A stretch of DNA of 64,000 nt, from NCBI GenBank assembly GCA_964413645.1, contig CAYPSA010000007.1:3621-67620 (forward strand). The letters are read 5' to 3'. The DNA is from an uncultured Gammaproteobacteria bacterium. GTDB lineage: Bacteria; Patescibacteriota; Microgenomatia; UBA1406; HO2-37-13b. The notes beneath the pieces were generated by a model. That model was not told the origin of the DNA. It worked only from the letters and a program-made list of their open reading frames with translations, and did no database searches. Numbering within the stretch: the first letter of the stretch is position 1; the number at the start of each line of letters is the position of its first letter. Of this stretch, positions 1,594 to 59,726 are shown piece after piece. A program made the translations under genes and the position numbers.

Positions 1594-2238
1594 ATGTCGT
1601 ACAACCAACGTGAATTTATAACAGGTAAGTATTATCACGTTTTCAATAAAACCGCCGATAATAAAACTCCTTTTCTTGATAATACAAAATGTAGTATGTT
1701 TCTACTAACTTCTTATTATTACCGCGCGTCTGACTTAAAAACGAGTTTTTCAAAATGGAAGCAATTTAATAATTCACAGAAAAACAAAATCAAAGAGCAA
1801 CTTCAAAATTCTAATAACTTCAGAGTCGATATTATTTCTTATTGTCTTATGCCAAATCACTTTCATTTTGTCCTTAAGCAAATCAGCGACCATGGAATTC
1901 ATGATTTTATTTCGAATGTTACCAATTCGTTTAAGCGCGCCTACAACATTGAAAATAATCGATTAGGAGCCCTTTTTCTACATCGTTTTCACGATGTCCC
2001 AATTATTTCTAGCGAACAACTTCTCACCGTTTCCCGATATGTTCATCGAAATCCAATAGCTCACAAAGTCAATTTCTCCGAATCCTTTCGCTCGTATCCA
2101 TGGAGCTCATATAAAGATTACTTGGAAATTAGCCCCGATCCGCTCAATCTAACAAATACCAAGCCAGTATTGAGTTATTTTAATAGCTCAAAAAGTTATC
2201 AAAAATTTGTCGAAGATGATTTTATATATGACGAATAG
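1594..2238 (+). CDS. IS200/RAYT-type Y1 (HUH) transposase-like protein
   Basis: HUH motif in CLMPNHFHFVLKQ. Catalytic-Tyr region SRYVHRNPIAHK. Length 214 aa. Confidence 0.7.
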   Translation: MSYNQREFITGKYYHVFNKTADNKTPFLDNTKCSMFLLTSYYYRASDLKTSFSKWKQFNNSQKNKIKEQLQNSNNFRVDIISYCLMPNHFHFVLKQISDHGIHDFISNVTNSFKRAYNIENNRLGALFLHRFHDVPIISSEQLLTVSRYVHRNPIAHKVNFSESFRSYPWSSYKDYLEISPDPLNLTNTKPVLSYFNSSKSYQKFVEDDFIYDE

Positions 2239-4871: not shown

Positions 4872-4886
4872 AAATGTTGTCATTTT

Positions 4887-4962
4887 TGTCATTTCGAAGG
4901 AGTGTTAGCGACTGAGAAATCTCAGCTATCCGAGATTTCTCGCCTAAAGGCTCGAAATGACA
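4887..4962. repeat. 76-nt nested-hairpin dispersed repeat (outer stem TGTCATTTCGA/TCGAAATGACA, inner stem GAGAAATCTC/GAGATTTCTC)
   Basis: Both stems are perfectly complementary. A copy of roughly 85% identity (by eye) lies at 47985-48059. Confidence 0.85.
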
Positions 4963-5225: not shown

Positions 5226-5231
5226 TATAAT
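5202..5231 (+). promoter_or_regulatory. Promoter TTGAAA-18-TATAAT, 6 nt upstream of ATG 5238
   Basis: Hexamers and spacing read from the sequence. Confidence 0.5.
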
Positions 5232-5237
5232 CAACAT

Positions 5238-5969
5238 ATGAAAGGCGTAATACTTGCGGGCGGACTTGCAACACGACTCTACCCATTAACCCATGCTACC
5301 AATAAGCACCTACTCCCTATTTACGACAAACCTATGGTGTTTTACCCTATCCAAACACTGGTAAATGCAGGAATCACCGAAATTCTTATTCTCACTTCAG
5401 GTCCATATGCCGGCCATTTTATACGCGTACTTGAAAATGGAAAAGAATTGGGAATCACCCATTTGGAATATGCATTTCAAGGAAATCCAAAAGGGGGAAT
5501 TTGTGACGCTATTATGTACGCCGAAGATTTTGCAAAGGACGAACCAATAACGGTCATTCTTGGTGATAACACAACCGACGCCGATATTTCTGGAGCTGTC
5601 AAAAACTTCCAATCCGGAGCTATGATGTTTCTTAAAGAAGTATCTGATCCACAACGCTTTGGAGTACCTGTTTTTGACCCAACAGACCCTAAAAAAATCA
5701 TTAAAGTCGAAGAAAAACCGGCAAATCCAAAATCTAATTACGCAAGCACGGGTCTATATATTTTCGACAATCGCTGCTTTGACTTTATCCGAACGCTTAA
5801 ACCTTCAGACAGAGGTGAGCTGGAAGTCCCCGATCTTCAAAACAAGTACATTGAACGTGGGGAAATGAAATGGGCAGAACTTGATGGATTTTGGTCCGAC
5901 GCCGGCACTTTTGAAAGCTTGTTTAGATCAAGCGCCTACTGGGCAAAAAAAGCAGGCGTGACAGGATGA
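5238..5969 (+). CDS. Sugar-phosphate nucleotidyltransferase (short RmlA/glucose-1-phosphate thymidylyltransferase-like)
   Basis: N-terminal MKGVILAGGLATRLYPLT..NKHLLPIYDKPM signature. Confidence 0.8.
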   Translation: MKGVILAGGLATRLYPLTHATNKHLLPIYDKPMVFYPIQTLVNAGITEILILTSGPYAGHFIRVLENGKELGITHLEYAFQGNPKGGICDAIMYAEDFAKDEPITVILGDNTTDADISGAVKNFQSGAMMFLKEVSDPQRFGVPVFDPTDPKKIIKVEEKPANPKSNYASTGLYIFDNRCFDFIRTLKPSDRGELEVPDLQNKYIERGEMKWAELDGFWSDAGTFESLFRSSAYWAKKAGVTG

Positions 5970-13827: not shown

Positions 13828-14087
13828 AGGCAGTGTTGTAACTGATAACCGGGTATGTAGCGACCATGAAATTGTCAGGTGTCTGGAGTAATGAGAGAGT
13901 CGTAAGGACTAAAGGCGAATAGAAAGATATCGAAATATTATTTGAGAATTTTGAAAAAGAGAAGATCTTGCGTGCCAGTAGCACTCCGGGGGTTTTTCCA
14001 ATGTTAAAGCGAACGATTAAAAATTTCATCGTACGAACATTGTAACGAATATAAGTATAGCACACAAGGTGCCGAATTGCCAATCCT

Positions 14088-14240
14088 TTGTCATTCTAAG
14101 TCCTTCGTTTACTCAGGATAAACTCCGCGAAGAATCTCCGACATATACTCCGCTCGATATCATGATTCTCAACCATGGTGAGCCCGCGTAGCAGTCTAAA
14201 ATGGTCTCTCCGCCAGCTGGCGGATCAGATATCTCGCGCC
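14088..14240. repeat. Composite of dispersed-repeat modules (GTCATTCTAAG.. / CTCAGGATAAACTCCGCGAAGAATCTCC / CCGCCAGCTGGCGG)
   Basis: The modules match 18186-18248 and 53901-53935. The palindrome CCGCCAGCTGGCGG lies at 14210-14223. Confidence 0.7.
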
Positions 14241-24131: not shown

Positions 24132-25859
24132 TCATTTCTTCTGACTTTTAAATATCTCTTCGATTTCCTTCAAACTCGTTATATCTTCTGGGCGTTTGTC
24201 GTCGCGAATGCGCTCAAGTCGTGGAAAACGAAGTGCGTACCCAGCCGTATGTGAAGGAGATTTCGTAAGCTCATCTGCTTTAATTTCCAAAACAATACTT
24301 GGTTTTACCCATACATCCGCTTTCATAAGGTCGGTGACTTCGTAGAGCGTGGGCTTTGTAGGAGAAATAAGTTTTTGGGATTGTTCAAACATTAATCTCC
24401 ACTCATCATCGGTGAGTCCTGTTCCCAGCTTCGCAACAGTTTTATATTTATCTTCTTTTTCATCATATATTCCCACTAAAATCGCCCCTAAACCAAATCC
24501 GGCACGCTTGCCTTTGCCGTAATCGTATCCCATAACTACTGTATCAATGGTATCGTCGATCTTACTACTGTAACTACGTTTATATTTAATCCAATTCCAC
24601 CCTCGTGCACCTGGCTGATACGGTCCATCTTCGCGCTTAACCATGATTCCTTCTAGTCCTTTTTCAATAGCGATATCAAATTCAAGCTCAATTTGATTTG
24701 CGCTCGTAATAATTCGCTCCGGAGAAAGCAAAATCGTATCCTTAACAACATCATTTGTAAGTTTCACCGTTTTATTGAGCAGTCTTCGACGATGGGTCAG
24801 TGGTTCGCCAATTAAATTCATGCCGTCCAAAAACAAAAGATCAAAAGCAAACAGTCGGAGTGGAATTTCTAAAGCCTTTGATGCTATGTCGTATTTGCGT
24901 TTTCGCTGAACCGTTTCTTGAAATGGTAAAAATCCACCTGTTTGAATATCATATCCAATAGCTTCCCCTTCAAAAATTACCGAATCTGCCTTTATTTCCT
25001 TTTGCACTCCAGCGACAATGTCAGGATACATGTGAGTAACATCATCAAGACCGCGAGAGTATAAACGTGTATCTTTTTTATTATGGTGAATCTGCAATCG
25101 GAAACCATCGTATTTTGGTTCAATAATACCTGCGGGAACTTTTTCCAAAATTGACTCAGGTGAAGAAAGTCGTTCGGCTTTCATCATAAGAATAGGAGTA
25201 AAGAGCGTTGGTCCAACAGTTGAAAGACCTTTTACACCTTTTTCTTTTATTACTTTTCCTATAAAACCAAGATCCGGATTCACTTGATACACTTTTTCAA
25301 TCGCTGGTCGAAATGATTTGTCCCCTGCGACCATATACGAAAATGCATCTAAAATGGTCATATCCGAAAATCCTAATCGAAGTGTATTAGTGGGAATGCG
25401 GGCAATAAATCTACATGAAAGTGCGTCCAGACTTTGAATGAGTTCGGTGATAATACTAAGTTTTACTTCTTGAGACCCGTTACCCGTTGCCTGAGTGATC
25501 GAGTAGAGCTTATTGTAAACCTGGACAATTGAAAGGTCAGTCTCCCCGATTGTCGAAACAGATGCACGCAAGCTTTCAATTGTTTTCCCCAAATCACCCG
25601 AGTTTTTATAAGCATTCATAAATACTTTCTCGTCAATTTGCAAACCAGTTACAAAGGCTTTTATAAGGAGCTTCTCTGCCAGTCCAAAATCGGCTTTTTC
25701 ATACAATGGCACGACCCGTCCTTGGAGTAAATATAAAACTTTATAGATCTCATCAGCGGAGACTTTTTCAAATAACTCAGCCAAAATTGAGGTCATCGCA
25801 TTGCGCGAAGGAGTATTTTCAATTTTATCGAAGTAGACTGCTAAATCATGAAACTTCAT
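24132..25859 (-). CDS. lig: ATP-dependent DNA ligase (archaeal/eukaryal-type with N-terminal DNA-binding domain)
   Basis: Adenylation motif EPKYDGFRLQIH, EGIMVK, and an OB-fold C-terminus. ATG 25859 is preferred because the longer ORF reads through the hairpin doublet. Confidence 0.88.
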   Translation of the reverse strand: MKFHDLAVYFDKIENTPSRNAMTSILAELFEKVSADEIYKVLYLLQGRVVPLYEKADFGLAEKLLIKAFVTGLQIDEKVFMNAYKNSGDLGKTIESLRASVSTIGETDLSIVQVYNKLYSITQATGNGSQEVKLSIITELIQSLDALSCRFIARIPTNTLRLGFSDMTILDAFSYMVAGDKSFRPAIEKVYQVNPDLGFIGKVIKEKGVKGLSTVGPTLFTPILMMKAERLSSPESILEKVPAGIIEPKYDGFRLQIHHNKKDTRLYSRGLDDVTHMYPDIVAGVQKEIKADSVIFEGEAIGYDIQTGGFLPFQETVQRKRKYDIASKALEIPLRLFAFDLLFLDGMNLIGEPLTHRRRLLNKTVKLTNDVVKDTILLSPERIITSANQIELEFDIAIEKGLEGIMVKREDGPYQPGARGWNWIKYKRSYSSKIDDTIDTVVMGYDYGKGKRAGFGLGAILVGIYDEKEDKYKTVAKLGTGLTDDEWRLMFEQSQKLISPTKPTLYEVTDLMKADVWVKPSIVLEIKADELTKSPSHTAGYALRFPRLERIRDDKRPEDITSLKEIEEIFKSQKK

Positions 25860-25871
25860 CCCCCTATTATA

Positions 25872-25913
25872 CAACCTAAGAGGTTGGATACGCACTGTCA
25901 ACCTCTTAGGTTG
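25872..25913. repeat. REP-like hairpin doublet
   Basis: Sequence caacctaagaggttg-gatacgcactgt-caacctcttaggttg. Confidence 0.8.
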
Positions 25914-25925
25914 CTAAATTGTAAA

Positions 25926-26108
25926 GTGAACACCAATGCTCAGGAATTCATTTATATCGCTTTTATTCTCCCTGCCCTTTTTGCCTCAACTTTTCTATGC
26001 GAAGGTGCCTACAAAATGTCCAAACACGAAGATGGATTCTTTTTATTTATTATGGGAACAGTGTTCTTAATAGTAATCACTTTCGCCTACCTCTACCTGT
26101 TTAAATAA
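25926..26108 (+). CDS. Small 2-TM membrane protein (60 aa), GTG start
   Basis: In-frame GTG 5 nt downstream of TGcTAAATT. Two hydrophobic helices. Confidence 0.35.
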   Translation: MNTNAQEFIYIAFILPALFASTFLCEGAYKMSKHEDGFFLFIMGTVFLIVITFAYLYLFK

Positions 26109-26110
26109 GG

Positions 26111-27154
26111 TTATACCATTACATACCGAGCAGCTTTTGTTTTTCCGATTTTTTTTATAATTCCCTTTTCAACTAAATCTTTTAAATCCCGCAAAGCCGT
26201 ATCATCTGAAACATCGCTAAATACTTCACCAAAACTTTGATTCTGTAAATAACCAATACTCTGAATGTATTCAATAATTTTAGTTTGACGTTCTGTTAAA
26301 AACACCTGCTTTCCTCCGAGTTTTTCTTTCAAGTATGTATCTTTTGAGAGCTTTAAAACTTTCGTCTTAATTCGTTCAAATTCAATTGCGACTCCAAGAG
26401 TAAAATATTCCAACCACGATGTTAAGTCGCCATCAGATGCTTTCTTCAAATTCTCGTAATACGCATATGCATCTTTGTCATAAAATTCTTCAAGTGAAAA
26501 AAATCGGCGAATATCATATTTTCCTAAAAAGAGAATAAGCGTTGCGACTGCTCGAGATACTCGTCCATTTCCATCAATAAACGGATGAATCCGAACCAAT
26601 TCATGATGAGCAATTCCCGCTTTTAATATAGGGTGTAAATCTTCATCATTTTGCTTATTGAACCAATACAAAAATTCTCGCATTAAAAATGGAACTTCCA
26701 CCGGCGATGGCGGACGAAACGTAATTTCACCCGTTTCACTATTGCGAATAACTACCTGTTTACTTCTATATGCTCCCGATTGTTCATCGGGAAGAATTTT
26801 ATTAACCACCACTCGATGAAGTTTCTTTATAAGCGCCTCATTCACCCGTTCAACTTCCCGGTCTGTTTCGTCTTCAATAACTTCCAAAACTCGACGATAA
26901 TTTATGACTTCCTGTACATCGCGAGCATGTCCTAACACATCTCGTCCCAAAAGGACGTCTTTTGCTTCAGAAAGATTCAACTTATTTCCTTCAATATGCG
27001 TTCCGTGATGCGCCTGCCGAATAATTGCATCTTCTCGAAATCGTTTTTCCCACAGTGGAAGTAACGGAGCGCCTGAAACCACTTCCCTGGCTGCTTCAAT
27101 AGATCCTATGTTTTTAAGAATTGCGTTGGTAATTTTGTACGAAGGTTGGAACAT
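26111..27154 (-). CDS. Fic/Fido-domain protein with C-terminal winged-helix domain
   Basis: Canonical motif HPFIDGNGRVSRA. Start ATG 27154 lies 7 nt downstream of TGtATAAT. Confidence 0.85.
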   Translation of the reverse strand: MFQPSYKITNAILKNIGSIEAAREVVSGAPLLPLWEKRFREDAIIRQAHHGTHIEGNKLNLSEAKDVLLGRDVLGHARDVQEVINYRRVLEVIEDETDREVERVNEALIKKLHRVVVNKILPDEQSGAYRSKQVVIRNSETGEITFRPPSPVEVPFLMREFLYWFNKQNDEDLHPILKAGIAHHELVRIHPFIDGNGRVSRAVATLILFLGKYDIRRFFSLEEFYDKDAYAYYENLKKASDGDLTSWLEYFTLGVAIEFERIKTKVLKLSKDTYLKEKLGGKQVFLTERQTKIIEYIQSIGYLQNQSFGEVFSDVSDDTALRDLKDLVEKGIIKKIGKTKAARYVMV

Positions 27155-27179
27155 GGAAAATATTATACATGAACCAGTG

Positions 27180-29469: not shown

Positions 29470-30004
29470 AGGAATGAATAAAAGCTTTTCGAGCTCGGAA
29501 CAGTAAACTTTCGGTCGTTTTGAATGGCAAATGAAATTCTTGCGCAATCTCTTTTACCGACCGGCCATCTACATACTTTAGTCGTAAAATGAGCGCATAA
29601 TCATGTGGAAGTTTTGAAAGTACTATTTCTATCTTTTTTACGACTTGTTCCCTATCAAGATCATCATCGAAAAAAACCGTTGCAAAGGAATCGATAATAA
29701 ACGAAGGAACATGAGAGAAAAAAATTCGACGTATTTTTTTGCGACGAAGTTTATCGATAATTTTGTACTTCGTAATAGAGTATAAATACGTCTTCAAACT
29801 CGACTGTCCCCTAAAATCGCGTAACCCTTCAATGAAATCTAAAAAAGTATCCTGCATAATTTCTTCTGCTTCACCAGAATCTGTAATCGTTTTTTGAATA
29901 AATGAAAGTAAGGACAACTTGTGGAGGGTATAAAAACTCTTCAAAGCCCGTTCATCGCGATCAAGCAGACGTGAAAGTAGTACAGAGTCTTTTTCTGAAA
30001 GCAT
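29453..30004 (-). CDS. ECF-type sigma-70 family RNA polymerase sigma factor
   Basis: Region 2 (EIMQDTFLDFIEGLRDFRGQSSLKTYLYSITKYKIIDKLRRKK) and region 4 (RSVKEIAQEFHLPFKTTESLLFRARKAF). Confidence 0.85.
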   Translation of the reverse strand: MLSEKDSVLLSRLLDRDERALKSFYTLHKLSLLSFIQKTITDSGEAEEIMQDTFLDFIEGLRDFRGQSSLKTYLYSITKYKIIDKLRRKKIRRIFFSHVPSFIIDSFATVFFDDDLDREQVVKKIEIVLSKLPHDYALILRLKYVDGRSVKEIAQEFHLPFKTTESLLFRARKAFIHSYEAYD

Positions 30005-30015
30005 ACCTAATTATA

Positions 30016-30057
30016 CAACCTCTTAGGTTGCCTGCGCACTGTCAACCTCTTAGGTTG
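30016..30057. repeat. REP-like hairpin doublet
   Basis: Sequence caacctcttaggttg-cctgcgcactgt-caacctcttaggttg. Confidence 0.8.
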
Positions 30058-30079
30058 CCAAATAGAGTATAATACAGGC

Positions 30080-31033
30080 ATGCTAATCGACGAAGTCATC
30101 ATTGATGTATACGCAGGAAACGGTGGACATGGATCCGCTTCATTCCGTCGTGAGAAATTTATTCCTCGTGGTGGGCCTGACGGAGGCGATGGTGGAAAAG
30201 GTGGGGATGTTTATTTTATTGGGGTTTCTGACCTCGGTGCGCTTTTACAATTCCAGTCCAAAAGAAAAATAGAAGCCGAAGATGGGAAACCCGGTGCTGC
30301 CAAAAAGTGTGAAGGAAAAGGTGGAGATGATTTACTCATTCGCATTCCCATTGGAACCAGCATTATTGATTTGCAAACAAACAAAACGATTGAAATCGAA
30401 AAGGTTGATCAAAAAGTATTAATTGCTAAAGGTGGAAAAGGTGGAAAAGGAAATTTTCAATTGCGAAGTGCCAGCAATCAAGCTCCTCCAGCAGGACTTC
30501 CCGGAAAACCAGGTCAATCAACTACTCTTCAACTTAACTTGCGATTTATTGCAGATATTGGATTTATTGGACTTCCAAATGCCGGAAAAAGCAGTCTCCT
30601 TAATGCGCTTACAAACGCGCAGGCAAAAATTGGAAACTATCCATTTACAACGCTCGAGCCAAATTTAGGAAAAATGGACGATCTTATTTTGGCCGATATT
30701 CCCGGACTTATTGAAGGTGCACATGAAGGGAAAGGTTTAGGAGTGCGATTCTTAAAACATATTGCTAAAACAAAGTTGCTGGTACACTGTATTGATGCAC
30801 AGAGCGAAAATGTGTTAGGTGACTATAAAACAATCCGACATGAGCTGGAGTCGTATGATGAAGCGCTTCTTGAAAAACAGGAAATAGTTGTCCTTACCAA
30901 ATCCGACATGGTAACCGAGAAAGAAATTTCAAAGCAAGTTACAAAACTCAAATCACTCAAGAAACCAATCCTTGTCTGTTCTGTTTTAAATGAATCACAA
31001 CTGCAGGAATTAAAAAAAGCTATTCAACAATAA
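30080..31033 (+). CDS. obg: GTPase Obg/CgtA (short, no C-terminal extension)
   Basis: Gly-rich Obg fold (GGDGGKGGDV, GGKGGKGN) and G-domain motifs GLPNAGKSSL and DIPGLIEGA. Confidence 0.92.
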   Translation: MLIDEVIIDVYAGNGGHGSASFRREKFIPRGGPDGGDGGKGGDVYFIGVSDLGALLQFQSKRKIEAEDGKPGAAKKCEGKGGDDLLIRIPIGTSIIDLQTNKTIEIEKVDQKVLIAKGGKGGKGNFQLRSASNQAPPAGLPGKPGQSTTLQLNLRFIADIGFIGLPNAGKSSLLNALTNAQAKIGNYPFTTLEPNLGKMDDLILADIPGLIEGAHEGKGLGVRFLKHIAKTKLLVHCIDAQSENVLGDYKTIRHELESYDEALLEKQEIVVLTKSDMVTEKEISKQVTKLKSLKKPILVCSVLNESQLQELKKAIQQ

Positions 31034-38463: not shown

Positions 38464-38520
38464 TATCTTGTAGTTTGACTACAAAATTTAATAACTCTCC
38501 TTATTTTATATAATGACCAG

Positions 38521-39252
38521 ATGGAATTCCTGAGACTTCTGTATCTCTTTCTCATGGCAGTTTATATTACCCGTGCACTTGCGTTGCGGAATAAAAGATC
38601 GCGATGGTTACTGATTACGAGTGCAATTACTATCCACGCATTCTATTTTTTCGGATGGAATGGAATACTTTTCCTAATTACTGCCGCTATAATCTCTACC
38701 TTAGCTGAACTGATGTGTTTAAAAACTCGTTTTAATGTATTCGGGGTTGCGTATAAATACAATTTAAATCACCGATATTTTTCGAGTCGAAAAATCATGG
38801 GTAGAGTACTCCCCATTGAAGTGTCAGCCACATGGGCTTTGCTTAAGTACCTTTCTTTTTTCTTAGCGTTAATCATTCTAACACCGCTTGGCATTCATGG
38901 AATTCCTAAAGCGATCGTTTCTGCTTTGATTCTCGTTTCGTTTGACTTATTACTTGACCCTCATGCGGTTGCTCAAAGAGCGTGGGAATGGAAAGGAGCA
39001 GGCTGGTTTTTTGGAATTCCGTGGCAAAACTTTTTAGGGTGGTTTATTGTTGGATTTACAATATCGCTATTATTCATAAACCTACAACCCATCGTGCCGA
39101 TCGATTTTGCAATGTCAATTCCACTTGTGATTACTGCCGCCATGTTTCCCTTGTTTATTATTAAGAAATTATGGGTACGTAATAAGTTTAAAGCAATTTT
39201 AGCATTAGCACCTCTTGCTATTGTCGTTATGGCGGCGGTACTATCATTATGA
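38521..39252 (+). CDS. Carotenoid-biosynthesis-protein-like (DUF422/CruF-like) membrane protein
   Basis: Seven TMs and the motif LLDPHAVAQRAWEWKGAGWFFGIPWQNFLGW. ATG lies 6 nt after TATAAT (38509-38514). Confidence 0.5.
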   Translation: MEFLRLLYLFLMAVYITRALALRNKRSRWLLITSAITIHAFYFFGWNGILFLITAAIISTLAELMCLKTRFNVFGVAYKYNLNHRYFSSRKIMGRVLPIEVSATWALLKYLSFFLALIILTPLGIHGIPKAIVSALILVSFDLLLDPHAVAQRAWEWKGAGWFFGIPWQNFLGWFIVGFTISLLFINLQPIVPIDFAMSIPLVITAAMFPLFIIKKLWVRNKFKAILALAPLAIVVMAAVLSL

Positions 39253-47929: not shown

Positions 47930-47984
47930 TGTTTATTTATAGCATACCCGCGAGGGAAAAAGATAGAGTGCAAGCAGATACCTT

Positions 47985-48059
47985 TGTCATTTCGAAAGAG
48001 CGCTAGCGACTGAGAAATCTCACCTAGCCGAGGTTTCTCGACTACGTATCGAAATGACA
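47985..48059. repeat. 75-nt nested-hairpin dispersed repeat (second full copy)
   Basis: Sequence tgtcatttcgaaagagcgctagcgactgagaaatctcacctagccgaggtttctcgactacgtatcgaaatgaca. Both stems are conserved relative to 4887-4962. Confidence 0.85.
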
Positions 48060-53867: not shown

Positions 53868-53945
53868 TTTGTCATTCAGAGCGATACCTTTGTCGTCTCG
53901 AACTCCGCCAGCTGGCGGTGTGAGAGATCTCCGCCCGCTTGCATT
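53868..53945. repeat. Dispersed-repeat module cluster (GTCATTCAGAGCGATACCTTTGTCGTCTCGAA..CCGCCAGCTGGCGG..GAGAGATCTCC)
   Basis: Its modules match 18170-18196 and 14207-14240. Confidence 0.7.
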
Positions 53946-58992: not shown

Positions 58993-59021
58993 TCAGATAT
59001 TCTACACACTATAATTGATTT

Positions 59022-59726
59022 ATGCATACCCATAACGAACCACATACGTTTGATGCGCTCAGCTCTCTTAACTGGCTTCGCGCAGCAGTATTAGGAGCAA
59101 ATGATGGCATTGTTTCTATTGCGGGTTTAGTTGTCGGAGTTGCTGGTGCTACAAATTCCTCAACCGCAATTCTTACTGCCGGAACAGCAGGAATTATTGC
59201 TGGTGCAATTTCAATGGCAGCAGGAGAGTATGTTTCGGTAAGTAGTTCTCGCGATACTGAGCGTGCGCTTCTTAAAAAAGAAGCATACGAATTAAAACAC
59301 TTTCCTGAACAAGAATTAAGAGAACTTGCCGCTCTTTATGAAAATAAAGGATTATCAGCAGAAACCGCAATGGAAGTTGCAAAAGAATTAACAAAAAAAG
59401 ATGCGTTTGCCGCACATGTAGATATTGAGCTTGGAATAGATCCAAATAATTTAACCAGTCCTTGGGAAGCTGCGTTTGCTTCAGCAGTCTCGTTTGTTGC
59501 TGGAGCTTTGATTCCATTAGTTGCAATCGCATTGCCTCCTGAAGCGTTACGAGTTCCCACTGCATTCTTATCCGTTATCGCAGCACTCGCAATTACCGGA
59601 ACCGTTAGCGCTAAAATTGGCGGTGCACAAGTTAATCGAGCAGTTTTTAGAGTTGTTATTGGGGGTATTTTAGCAATGGGAATTACATTCGGAATTGGAA
59701 GTCTTTTTGGCGTATCGGGAGTATAG
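59022..59726 (+). CDS. VIT1/CCC1-family iron/manganese transporter
   Basis: LRAAVLGANDGIVS motif and five TMs. Confidence 0.85.
   Translation: MHTHNEPHTFDALSSLNWLRAAVLGANDGIVSIAGLVVGVAGATNSSTAILTAGTAGIIAGAISMAAGEYVSVSSSRDTERALLKKEAYELKHFPEQELRELAALYENKGLSAETAMEVAKELTKKDAFAAHVDIELGIDPNNLTSPWEAAFASAVSFVAGALIPLVAIALPPEALRVPTAFLSVIAALAITGTVSAKIGGAQVNRAVFRVVIGGILAMGITFGIGSLFGVSGV

Follow-up and report, generated by a model that had tools for sequence, protein, structure and literature searches.

REP (repetitive extragenic palindrome) elements are short, perfect or imperfect palindromes that form hairpins and carry a conserved guide, described as a tetranucleotide, directly 5' of the hairpin foot. 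They occur in many copies per genome, only outside genes, and adjacent to the gene of a REP-associated tyrosine transposase (RAYT) (PMC6006769). A transposase gene flanked by repeat doublets is the arrangement that defines REP/RAYT systems (PMC5581495, PMC6006769). Here, we examine a doublet of two hairpins spanning 42 nucleotides (nt) at positions 25872-25913 of a 64-kb stretch of contig CAYPSA010000007.1 (hereafter the window). It separates the start codon of an ATP-dependent DNA ligase gene from that of a small membrane-protein gene and has a -10-like box on each side. We consider it likely (probability about 0.8) that the doublet is a REP-type copy of a family that belongs to the RAYT-like Y1/HUH transposase encoded at 1594-2238, and that the -10 boxes abutted by doublets at the ligase and sigma genes are the host's own. 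What we observe is a repeat family, its association with a transposase gene, -10 boxes that pre-date the repeats, and the gain, loss and inversion of doublets between relatives. The host, as placed by its ligase homologues, is a Candidatus Roizmanbacteria, a member of the candidate phyla radiation (CPR); samples SRR8893623 and SRR8893624 contain its population.

The first hairpin (H1, 25872-25886, CAACCTAAGAGGTTG) has a perfect 6-bp stem, CAACCT pairing with AGGTTG, around the 3-nt loop AAG (-3.6 kcal/mol as DNA). The second (H2, 25899-25913, CAACCTCTTAGGTTG) has an identical stem around the loop CTT. The two loops are reverse complements and form the sole difference between the 15-nt palindromes, whose centres are 27 bp apart. 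Between them, the 12-nt plus-strand spacer GATACGCACTGT (25887-25898) reads GATA followed by the 8-nt motif CGCACTGT. A first-pass annotation, made from the letters of the window alone, had reported this layout with coordinates that are all correct. With its mixed loops, the whole 42 nt can also fold as single-stranded DNA (ssDNA) into a single long hairpin, whose stem is 15 bp (-15.6 kcal/mol, z = -8.9). Reading from 25857, the plus strand runs CAT CCCCCT ATTATA CAACCTAAGAGGTTG GATACGCACTGT CAACCTCTTAGGTTG CTAAATT GTAAA GTG. On the minus strand, the ligase -10 box TATAAT (25871-25866) is thus followed by AGGGGG (6 nt) and ATG 25859, a leaderless layout. On the plus strand, the TG that ends the H2 stem (25912-25913) joins the flank CTAAATT (25914-25920) to give the -10-like TGcTAAATT. 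Here, TG, C and TAAATT (25915-25920) precede GTAAA (5 nt) and GTG 25926, which fits an extended -10 element (TGn before TAnnnT). Both flanks therefore look like promoters, with TATAAT 6 nt before ATG and TGcTAAATT 5 nt before GTG, as the annotation had said. Its further claim that the hairpin stem supplies the TG of an extended -10 on both sides holds for TGcTAAATT only: the ligase-side junction is TTG/TATAAT, where TG abuts the hexamer directly, one position too near for a canonical TGnTATAAT.

The doublet is one of a family. The window holds seven exact CAACCTNNNAGGTTG hairpins where 0.10 would be expected, and in 100 shuffles the count never came to 8. The unit consists of a 15-nt hairpin (CAACCT-N3-AGGTTG), four variable nucleotides, the conserved 8-nt CGCACTGT and a second hairpin with the same stem. 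Four loci lie within the window, and a fifth doublet is found just upstream of its start, on contig L011 of the same genome (L011:1638-1679), in the spacer between lytR and prf. An intact doublet with loops AAG/AAG (2240-2281, plus) directly follows the stop codon of the RAYT-like gene and has no -10 box on either side. Another, with loops CTT/CTT (30016-30057, plus), separates the divergent genes of a sigma-70-family factor and obg, where the sigma TATAAT (30015-30010, minus) directly adjoins it and the obg TATAAT (30068-30073) is 10 nt away. A degenerate doublet (1443-1484, minus) upstream of the RAYT-like gene retains one intact hairpin, with the guide reversed (CCAGTGCG) and the second arm decayed. 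All five loci, in the approximately 67 kb examined, are intergenic.

Across the window genome and its relatives, every locus is a doublet or a decayed doublet, and the spacer of all doublets is 12 nt. Every doublet has the 8-nt CGCACTGT (in one copy CGCACTGG) directly against one of its hairpins, once per doublet and in either orientation. In the copy at 25872-25913 it lies directly 5' of H2, and it may serve the transposase as a guide or recognition sequence. The loops AAG and CTT occur in all combinations; as ssDNA, the same-loop copies (2240 and 30016) form two small hairpins, not one long one. Folded as DNA, doublets range from -9 to -16 kcal/mol (z from -3.5 to -8.9). Stem changes in variant copies are uncompensated, consistent with decay. 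No compensatory changes were found within the family; covariation appears only between families, in which differing palindromes accompany differing RAYT homologues.

A search of the genome contig collection for the guide plus hairpin pattern returned ten single matches, of which nine resemble chance hits in unrelated, mostly GC-rich genomes. The tenth, L002, is a contig from the assembly of the 90% relative (L020, below). Scanning the metagenome contig collection gave one match, by chance, inside a coding region. A contig labelled Planctomycetia (L008, CAZAPE010000040.1, GC 34%) carries CCGCACTGT-CAACCTACGAGGTTG-CCAAT at 5252-5273, with guide, stem and flank as in the window family, and may be a mis-binned related CPR contig. 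Note that short-read contigs end at these repeats, as multi-copy DNA would lead one to expect.

The presumed partner of the family is encoded at 1594-2238 (plus; 214 amino acids, aa) by a gene that is present once in the window, with a doublet on each side. Its product matches Pfam Y1_Tnp at 29.4 bits, above the family threshold. The HUH motif CLMPNHFH (H89-F90-H91) and the motif YxHxNP (Y149-x-H151-x-N153-P154) are invariant in 21 aligned homologues, and homologues are nearly all from Patescibacteria/CPR. A phmmer search of the protein against the PDB had no matches. A profile of the 21 homologues retrieved Escherichia coli TnpA-REP (4ER8) as the best PDB entry (E = 5.6e-5), with ISDra2 at 6e-3. 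The AlphaFold model (predicted local distance difference test, 89) likewise matched 4ER8 best in Foldseek (E = 6e-8), with the IS608 and ISDra2 transposases at about 1e-4. A syntenic orthologue (65% identical) has the same order, ftsX, RAYT and a lamin-tail-domain (LTD) gene, again with doublets on both sides of the RAYT gene; two CPR homologues that are more distant have flanking palindromes of their own, unlike those of the window. The link between REP-type doublets and a RAYT-like protein, which the annotation had drawn, is borne out both by the excess of exact hairpins and by the doublets that flank this Y1/HUH gene. Upstream of the gene (1497-1593; L023:9903-10000), no strong -10 box lies beside the ATG; a conserved CATAGT occurs 5-6 nt before it, and TATAAT or TATAAG about 90 nt upstream. 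The gene could have a weak promoter, or a leader unusual for this genome.

To trace the history of the -10 boxes, we compared the ligase, Fic, sigma and uppS genes of three relatives (L016, L020 and L022). Identity to the window was highest for L016 (ligase protein 96%; DNA 82-89% across ligase, Fic and sigma; uppS DNA 92%), lower for L020 (90%, 78-83% and 57%) and lowest for L022 (78%, 67-80% and 57%), and the tree that follows from the DNA identities is ((window, L016), L020), L022. The ligase gene (24132-25859, minus; 575 aa; Pfam DNA_ligase_A_N, _M and _C) starts at ATG 25859, and its orthologues of 575 aa begin at the same Met. Upstream of it lies a Fic/DeoR-type helix-turn-helix (HTH) gene (26111-27154, minus), whose stop codon overlaps the ligase -10 box in the nearest relatives. 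In L016 and L020, the ligase is preceded by ...GTAATGGTATAAT-6 nt-ATG, with neither doublet nor small open reading frame (ORF). Their -10 region, ATGGTATAAT followed by 6 nt and ATG, overlaps the Fic stop and contains the canonical TGgTATAAT. The window has 251 extra bases at this locus, with TATAA at both ends (GGTATAA/CC ... AGGTTG/TATAAT). Because the Fic stop overlaps the ligase -10 box, additional DNA fits only exactly at the box, and the abutment of doublet and box is forced.

The extra DNA includes the small membrane-protein gene (25926-26108, plus; 60 aa, GTG start). Its product is 73% identical over 60/60 residues to that of an ORF in L022, whose ATG aligns with GTG 25926, and judging by this conservation it is a real gene. 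In L022, the ORF lies on the same strand as Fic and ligase, that is, inverted relative to the window. It is followed by a longer, different GC-rich hairpin ending GGTTG/TCAAAG, and then by TGCTATAAT-6 nt-ATG. The segments compared were window 25914-26110, L022:9749-9946 and L016/L020:9990-10003 (ORF absent). The small ORF and hairpin may have been lost from this locus on two occasions or re-inserted on one, and the 251-bp difference could reflect precise deletion via microhomology or a cassette-like re-insertion. In L022, a 34-nt perfect palindrome, TGACAACCCCGGGGGTTAACCCCCGGGGTTGTCA (L022:9951-9984), lies 7 nt upstream of the ligase TATAAT. It has the outer CAACC..GGTTG and the TCAAAG flank in common with the window repeat and may be that genome's version of the family.

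The sigma-obg spacer provides a second comparison. In L022, 46 bp separate the two start codons and hold two back-to-back -10 boxes without any hairpin; the sigma box there is TGATATAAT followed by 6 nt and ATG (TGaTATAAT). In the window, L016 and L020, a doublet lies between the same two boxes. Since the ligase and sigma -10 boxes are present in relatives without the doublet, they are host sequence that pre-dates it. The proposal that ATTATA forms part of the repeat is ruled out by the same observation. Both ancestral boxes were canonical TGnTATAAT, and insertion moved the TG by one position. Comparing orthologous spacers, as the annotation had recommended, thus reveals gain or loss between relatives, with the doublet absent from the ligase locus of L016 and L020 and from the obg-sigma spacer of L022.

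Doublets have also been altered in place. A second palindrome, TCCGCCAGCTGGCGGA, interrupts the sigma-proximal hairpin of L016 and L020. This nested palindrome, (T)CCGCCAGCTGGCGG(A), occupies L016:6062-6079 and L020:6049-6066, and CCGCCAGCTGGCGG also occurs in intergenic DNA of the window (14210-14223 and 53905-53918), beside TTTGTCATTC-type repeats. At L016:6013-6040, a 14-bp tandem duplication, TTTGGCAACCTAAG, takes in the flank together with the hairpin's left half. In the lytR-prf spacer, the doublets L011:1638-1679 and L023:6641-6682 have identical flanks, with loops and spacer reverse-complemented; the unit has therefore flipped in place between genomes, which points to a hairpin-mediated or transposase-mediated event. 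In the window, single loops also flip (AAG or CTT) independently of one another. The same spacer in L024 holds a 181-aa ORF (L024:6016-6690) between two doublets, with its own leaderless-type TATAAT. This ORF has no Pfam match and is absent from L023 and L025.

Such turnover is difficult to reconcile with the idea, put forward in the annotation, that the two 15-bp palindromes are paired operators through which a dimeric protein co-regulates divergent promoters. The perfect 6-bp half-sites with a free 3-bp centre and the fixed 27-bp spacing are typical of operator pairs, stems are conserved and loops variable across relatives, and divergent promoters enclose two of the copies, one beside a sigma-factor gene. 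However, the doublet is missing from the orthologous ligase promoter of both the 96% and the 90% relative, L016 and L020 have a disrupted sigma-proximal hairpin, the sigma-obg copy is absent from L022 and the lytR-prf copy is inverted in place. The neighbouring genes are also functionally incoherent (ligase, small membrane protein, sigma factor, obg, class I peptide chain release factor, transposase and LTD protein). Copies occur not only between divergent genes but in tandem arrangements (4-17 nt past a stop codon), 1-17 nt past the stops of lytR, ftsX and the RAYT-like gene, and between convergent genes (L002-2348, L016-13539), and the family flanks the RAYT-like gene, as REPs do. We therefore reject the operator proposal as highly improbable. 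Nor is the juxtaposition with -10 boxes general: the distance from hairpin to box is 0, 0, 10, 10 or 12-15 nt among copies, and the copy at 2240-2281 and the convergent copies have no adjacent box, an outcome that the annotation itself had named as refuting its view.

The copies just past stop codons (RAYT, lytR and ftsX) and the stability of the folded doublets could instead suggest one of the roles reported for some enterobacterial REPs: a terminator, an insulator or a hairpin that stabilises mRNA. Yet no transcript should reach the copy at 25872-25913, which lies between two outward-facing starts. Its stems are not followed by a T-run, a terminator scan found no terminator-like site at the doublet, and the doublet has no match in Rfam. 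We find such a role scarcely credible here.

A proposal that overlaps partly with ours is that the doublet contributes to promoters. The end ..GGTTG plus CTAAAT would create TGcTAAATT for the small ORF, and the TG would reinforce an abutting TATAAT, making doublets portable promoter-proximal modules. TGcTAAATT ends 5 nt short of GTG 25926, the counterpart of the orthologue's ATG in the alignment. Because the small ORF is inverted relative to L022, its former TAGAAT promoter is lost and it must have gained a new one, which the doublet flank may provide. A YYAR/YCAAA flank accompanies one terminal hairpin at seven of nine independent loci (P about 1e-7, for a pattern chosen post hoc), the 181-aa ORF of L024 likewise lies directly downstream of a doublet, and TG abuts TATAAT at native promoters too (36491, 51255 and 27167). 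Against this, none of the -10 boxes of ligase, sigma, obg and prf owes its existence to the doublet, and insertion took the canonical TGn away from the ancestral ligase and sigma boxes while adding none. Only the CTAAAT flank yields a usable hexamer; genes beside CCAAAT or TCAAAT use a separate TATAAT 10 nt further on. A consensus scan of 25700-26200 found no -35/-10 promoter with a -35 hexamer 16-18 bp upstream of the -10 box. Two internal candidates also failed: a perfect TTGACA at the hairpin-spacer junction is 24 bp from the abutting TATAAT, and in TTGACA-17 nt-TAGGTT the -10 part matches at only 3/6 positions. At the position of the flank, the empty sigma-obg site of L022 already has TTATGG, and the flank may thus belong to the target and not to the element. 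Overall, we think it unlikely that doublets contribute to promoters in this way.

These comparisons also bear on two points of the annotation. Its reading that doublets are mobile cassettes carrying or creating promoters fails for the ligase and sigma boxes, which exist without them, and survives only for TGcTAAATT, which may derive partly from the element's flank or from its target site. It had also asked whether C(C/T)AAAT belongs to the repeat. The YYAR flank recurs and could be an element end or a preferred target, and the TTATGG of L022 favours a target. The doublet as a promoter carrier and the doublet as a regulator binding site are thus both unsupported.

The architecture of the host's promoters bears on where the doublet lies. 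A -10 box occurs 3-12 nt before the ATG of 21 of 43 genes (mode 6 nt), as compared with 7% of random positions; examples lie at 5226-5240, 30068-30082, 38509-38523 and 59010-59024. Shine-Dalgarno-like motifs precede only five of the 43, and no consistent -35 element was seen in the upstream regions of the window. TG may be absent, one base off or directly abutting the -10 hexamer. These patterns suggest widespread leaderless transcription. With a -10 box near so many start codons, adjacency to one is the expected fate of any intergenic insert. The Fic gene has its own promoter, TGTATAAT followed by 7 nt and ATG (27154-27167, minus), within the gene upstream, which encodes a prenyltransferase (UppS-type), at its 3' end; there, TG natively abuts the hexamer, as at the doublet-flanked promoters.

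By analogy with E. coli TnpA-REP and the IS608 and ISDra2 enzymes, the RAYT-like protein would recognise the hairpin and its 5' neighbouring motif on ssDNA, cut and rejoin. This activity would spread doublets into intergenic DNA and remove or flip them. In this host, with its very short intergenic regions, the space just upstream of a -10 box is almost the sole room for an insert, and would tolerate one. Being upstream of both predicted starts, the copy at 25872-25913 is probably untranscribed and probably has little regulatory effect, which would make it close to neutral. Its precise excision at the ligase would leave the junction GGTATAAT-AGGGGG.

Several points weigh against assigning the doublet to a RAYT-associated family inserted beside host promoters. 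Copies are known from only approximately 67 kb of the genome (five loci), and both the leaderless starts and the transposase activity are deduced from sequence. The RAYT-like protein reaches E = 1e-12 but only 47.9 bits against NCBIfam REP_Tyr_transpos, below the curated cut-off of 80, and we therefore file it as RAYT-like, in a divergent CPR clade. The doublets are not strict REPINs (two REPs in inverted orientation that jointly fold into one long hairpin), since the 8-nt motif occurs once per doublet and loops are mostly direct, not inverted. Finally, the exact junction AGGTTG/TATAAT is found at two independent loci, and for random placement in a 21-nt gap we estimate a roughly 9% chance of the sigma junction. 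This could reflect a preference for -10-like targets, or selection for the junction itself.

Taken further, doublets might insert at, or be selected beside, -10-like sequence, carry gene cassettes, supply leaderless promoters from their flank, and flip to switch the neighbour that is served. The AGGTTG/TATAAT junction at two loci and the TATAA at both ends of the extra 251 bp bear on the first of these points. The inverted small ORF and the doublet-bracketed 181-aa ORF of L024 are candidates for such cassettes. If the unit flips in place, whether through the RAYT-like enzyme or through template switching at the hairpin, the end that bears TTGACA or TG could come to face the other neighbour. 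If true, REP doublets would act as compact modules for recombination and promoter function where hardly any intergenic DNA exists. We regard this extended scenario as quite improbable.

The repeats also affect annotation. The public gene call of the ligase has 589 aa and begins at TTG 25901, inside the doublet, and the LTD gene is called from TTG 2207. These starts are annotation artefacts, produced by callers that extend ORFs through the repeats. ORFs running through doublets (25860-25901, 2207-2290 and 29902-30072) encode peptides such as QPLRLLNC and QPKRLPPHCQPKRL. A different intergenic repeat family of 62 nt, TTTGTCATTTCGAAGGAG..GAGAAATCTC.., is present at 4885-4946 and 47983-48044 (89% identical), with 14076-14110 and 53869-53900 also listed as members. 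In the spacer between an HTH gene and a 1292-aa gene, the window has this 62-nt element and L020 has a REP doublet.

Our reading, a REP-type family with host-owned -10 boxes, would extend the REP/RAYT partnership, known mainly from Proteobacteria, to CPR bacteria with tiny genomes and minimal intergenic space. In the literature searched, no paper connected CPR bacteria with REP or RAYT. Repeats set directly against -10 boxes would imply promoters that need little or nothing upstream of -13, and would offer a natural example of how repeats fit into an apparently largely leaderless genome. This reading also explains the artefactual gene calls (ligase and LTD) and the short-read assembly breaks, and it removes a tempting regulatory story for the doublet as unsupported.

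Among known systems, elements of the IS200/IS605 family (IS608 and ISDra2) have in common with the window family the Y1/HUH fold, a guide motif beside a hairpin and, perhaps, a short sequence-specific target at one end (the YYAR flank). Here, however, the transposase gene lies outside the repeated unit and, present once in the window and syntenic in a relative, is probably not mobile. The flipping resembles minute inversions of hairpin loops, reportedly described in chloroplast non-coding DNA by Kelchner and Wendel in 1996, in that the loop of a perfect stem flips (AAG/CTT) independently of its surroundings. It differs in that the whole 42-nt unit also flips and that a predicted hairpin-acting transposase is available.

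E. coli bacterial interspersed mosaic elements (BIMEs) are mosaics of REP pairs with conserved linkers, mostly at the 3' ends of operons, and are transcribed. The window family likewise has two palindromic units, a short conserved linker and copies scattered in intergenic DNA, whereas the copy at 25872-25913 lies upstream of both neighbouring starts. As with REPINs, the doublet is the recurring unit, has fixed spacing and is gained or lost between close relatives, and the copy at 25872-25913 can fold as one hairpin. Unlike in REPINs, each REP here is a perfect palindrome, so that only the 3-nt loop and the one 8-nt motif show which way it points. Loops are direct in most doublets, which form two small hairpins, and the unit is 42 nt, compared with REP-to-REP spacings of roughly 70-110 bp in Pseudomonas.

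The closest likeness is to REP/RAYT systems, the source of 4ER8. Both have short extragenic hairpins with a conserved motif directly 5' of the stem and intergenic copies, and both have a Y1/HUH gene, here syntenic and present once in the window, flanked by repeats; the HUH and Tyr motifs are present, and 4ER8 is the best match by profile and by structure. The host differs, as RAYTs in the literature searched come mainly from Proteobacteria and a few other classes and the window is from a Roizmanbacteria. The protein is longer than that of 4ER8 (214 versus 165 aa), with a helical insert (columns 100-130 of the 21-homologue alignment) and a C-terminal extension. In the repeat itself, the adjacent motif has 8 nt rather than being a tetranucleotide and occurs once per doublet, the stem is only 6 bp and the loops are free in orientation. 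What we describe is a REP/RAYT-type element in a new lineage, one that resembles REPINs and BIMEs.

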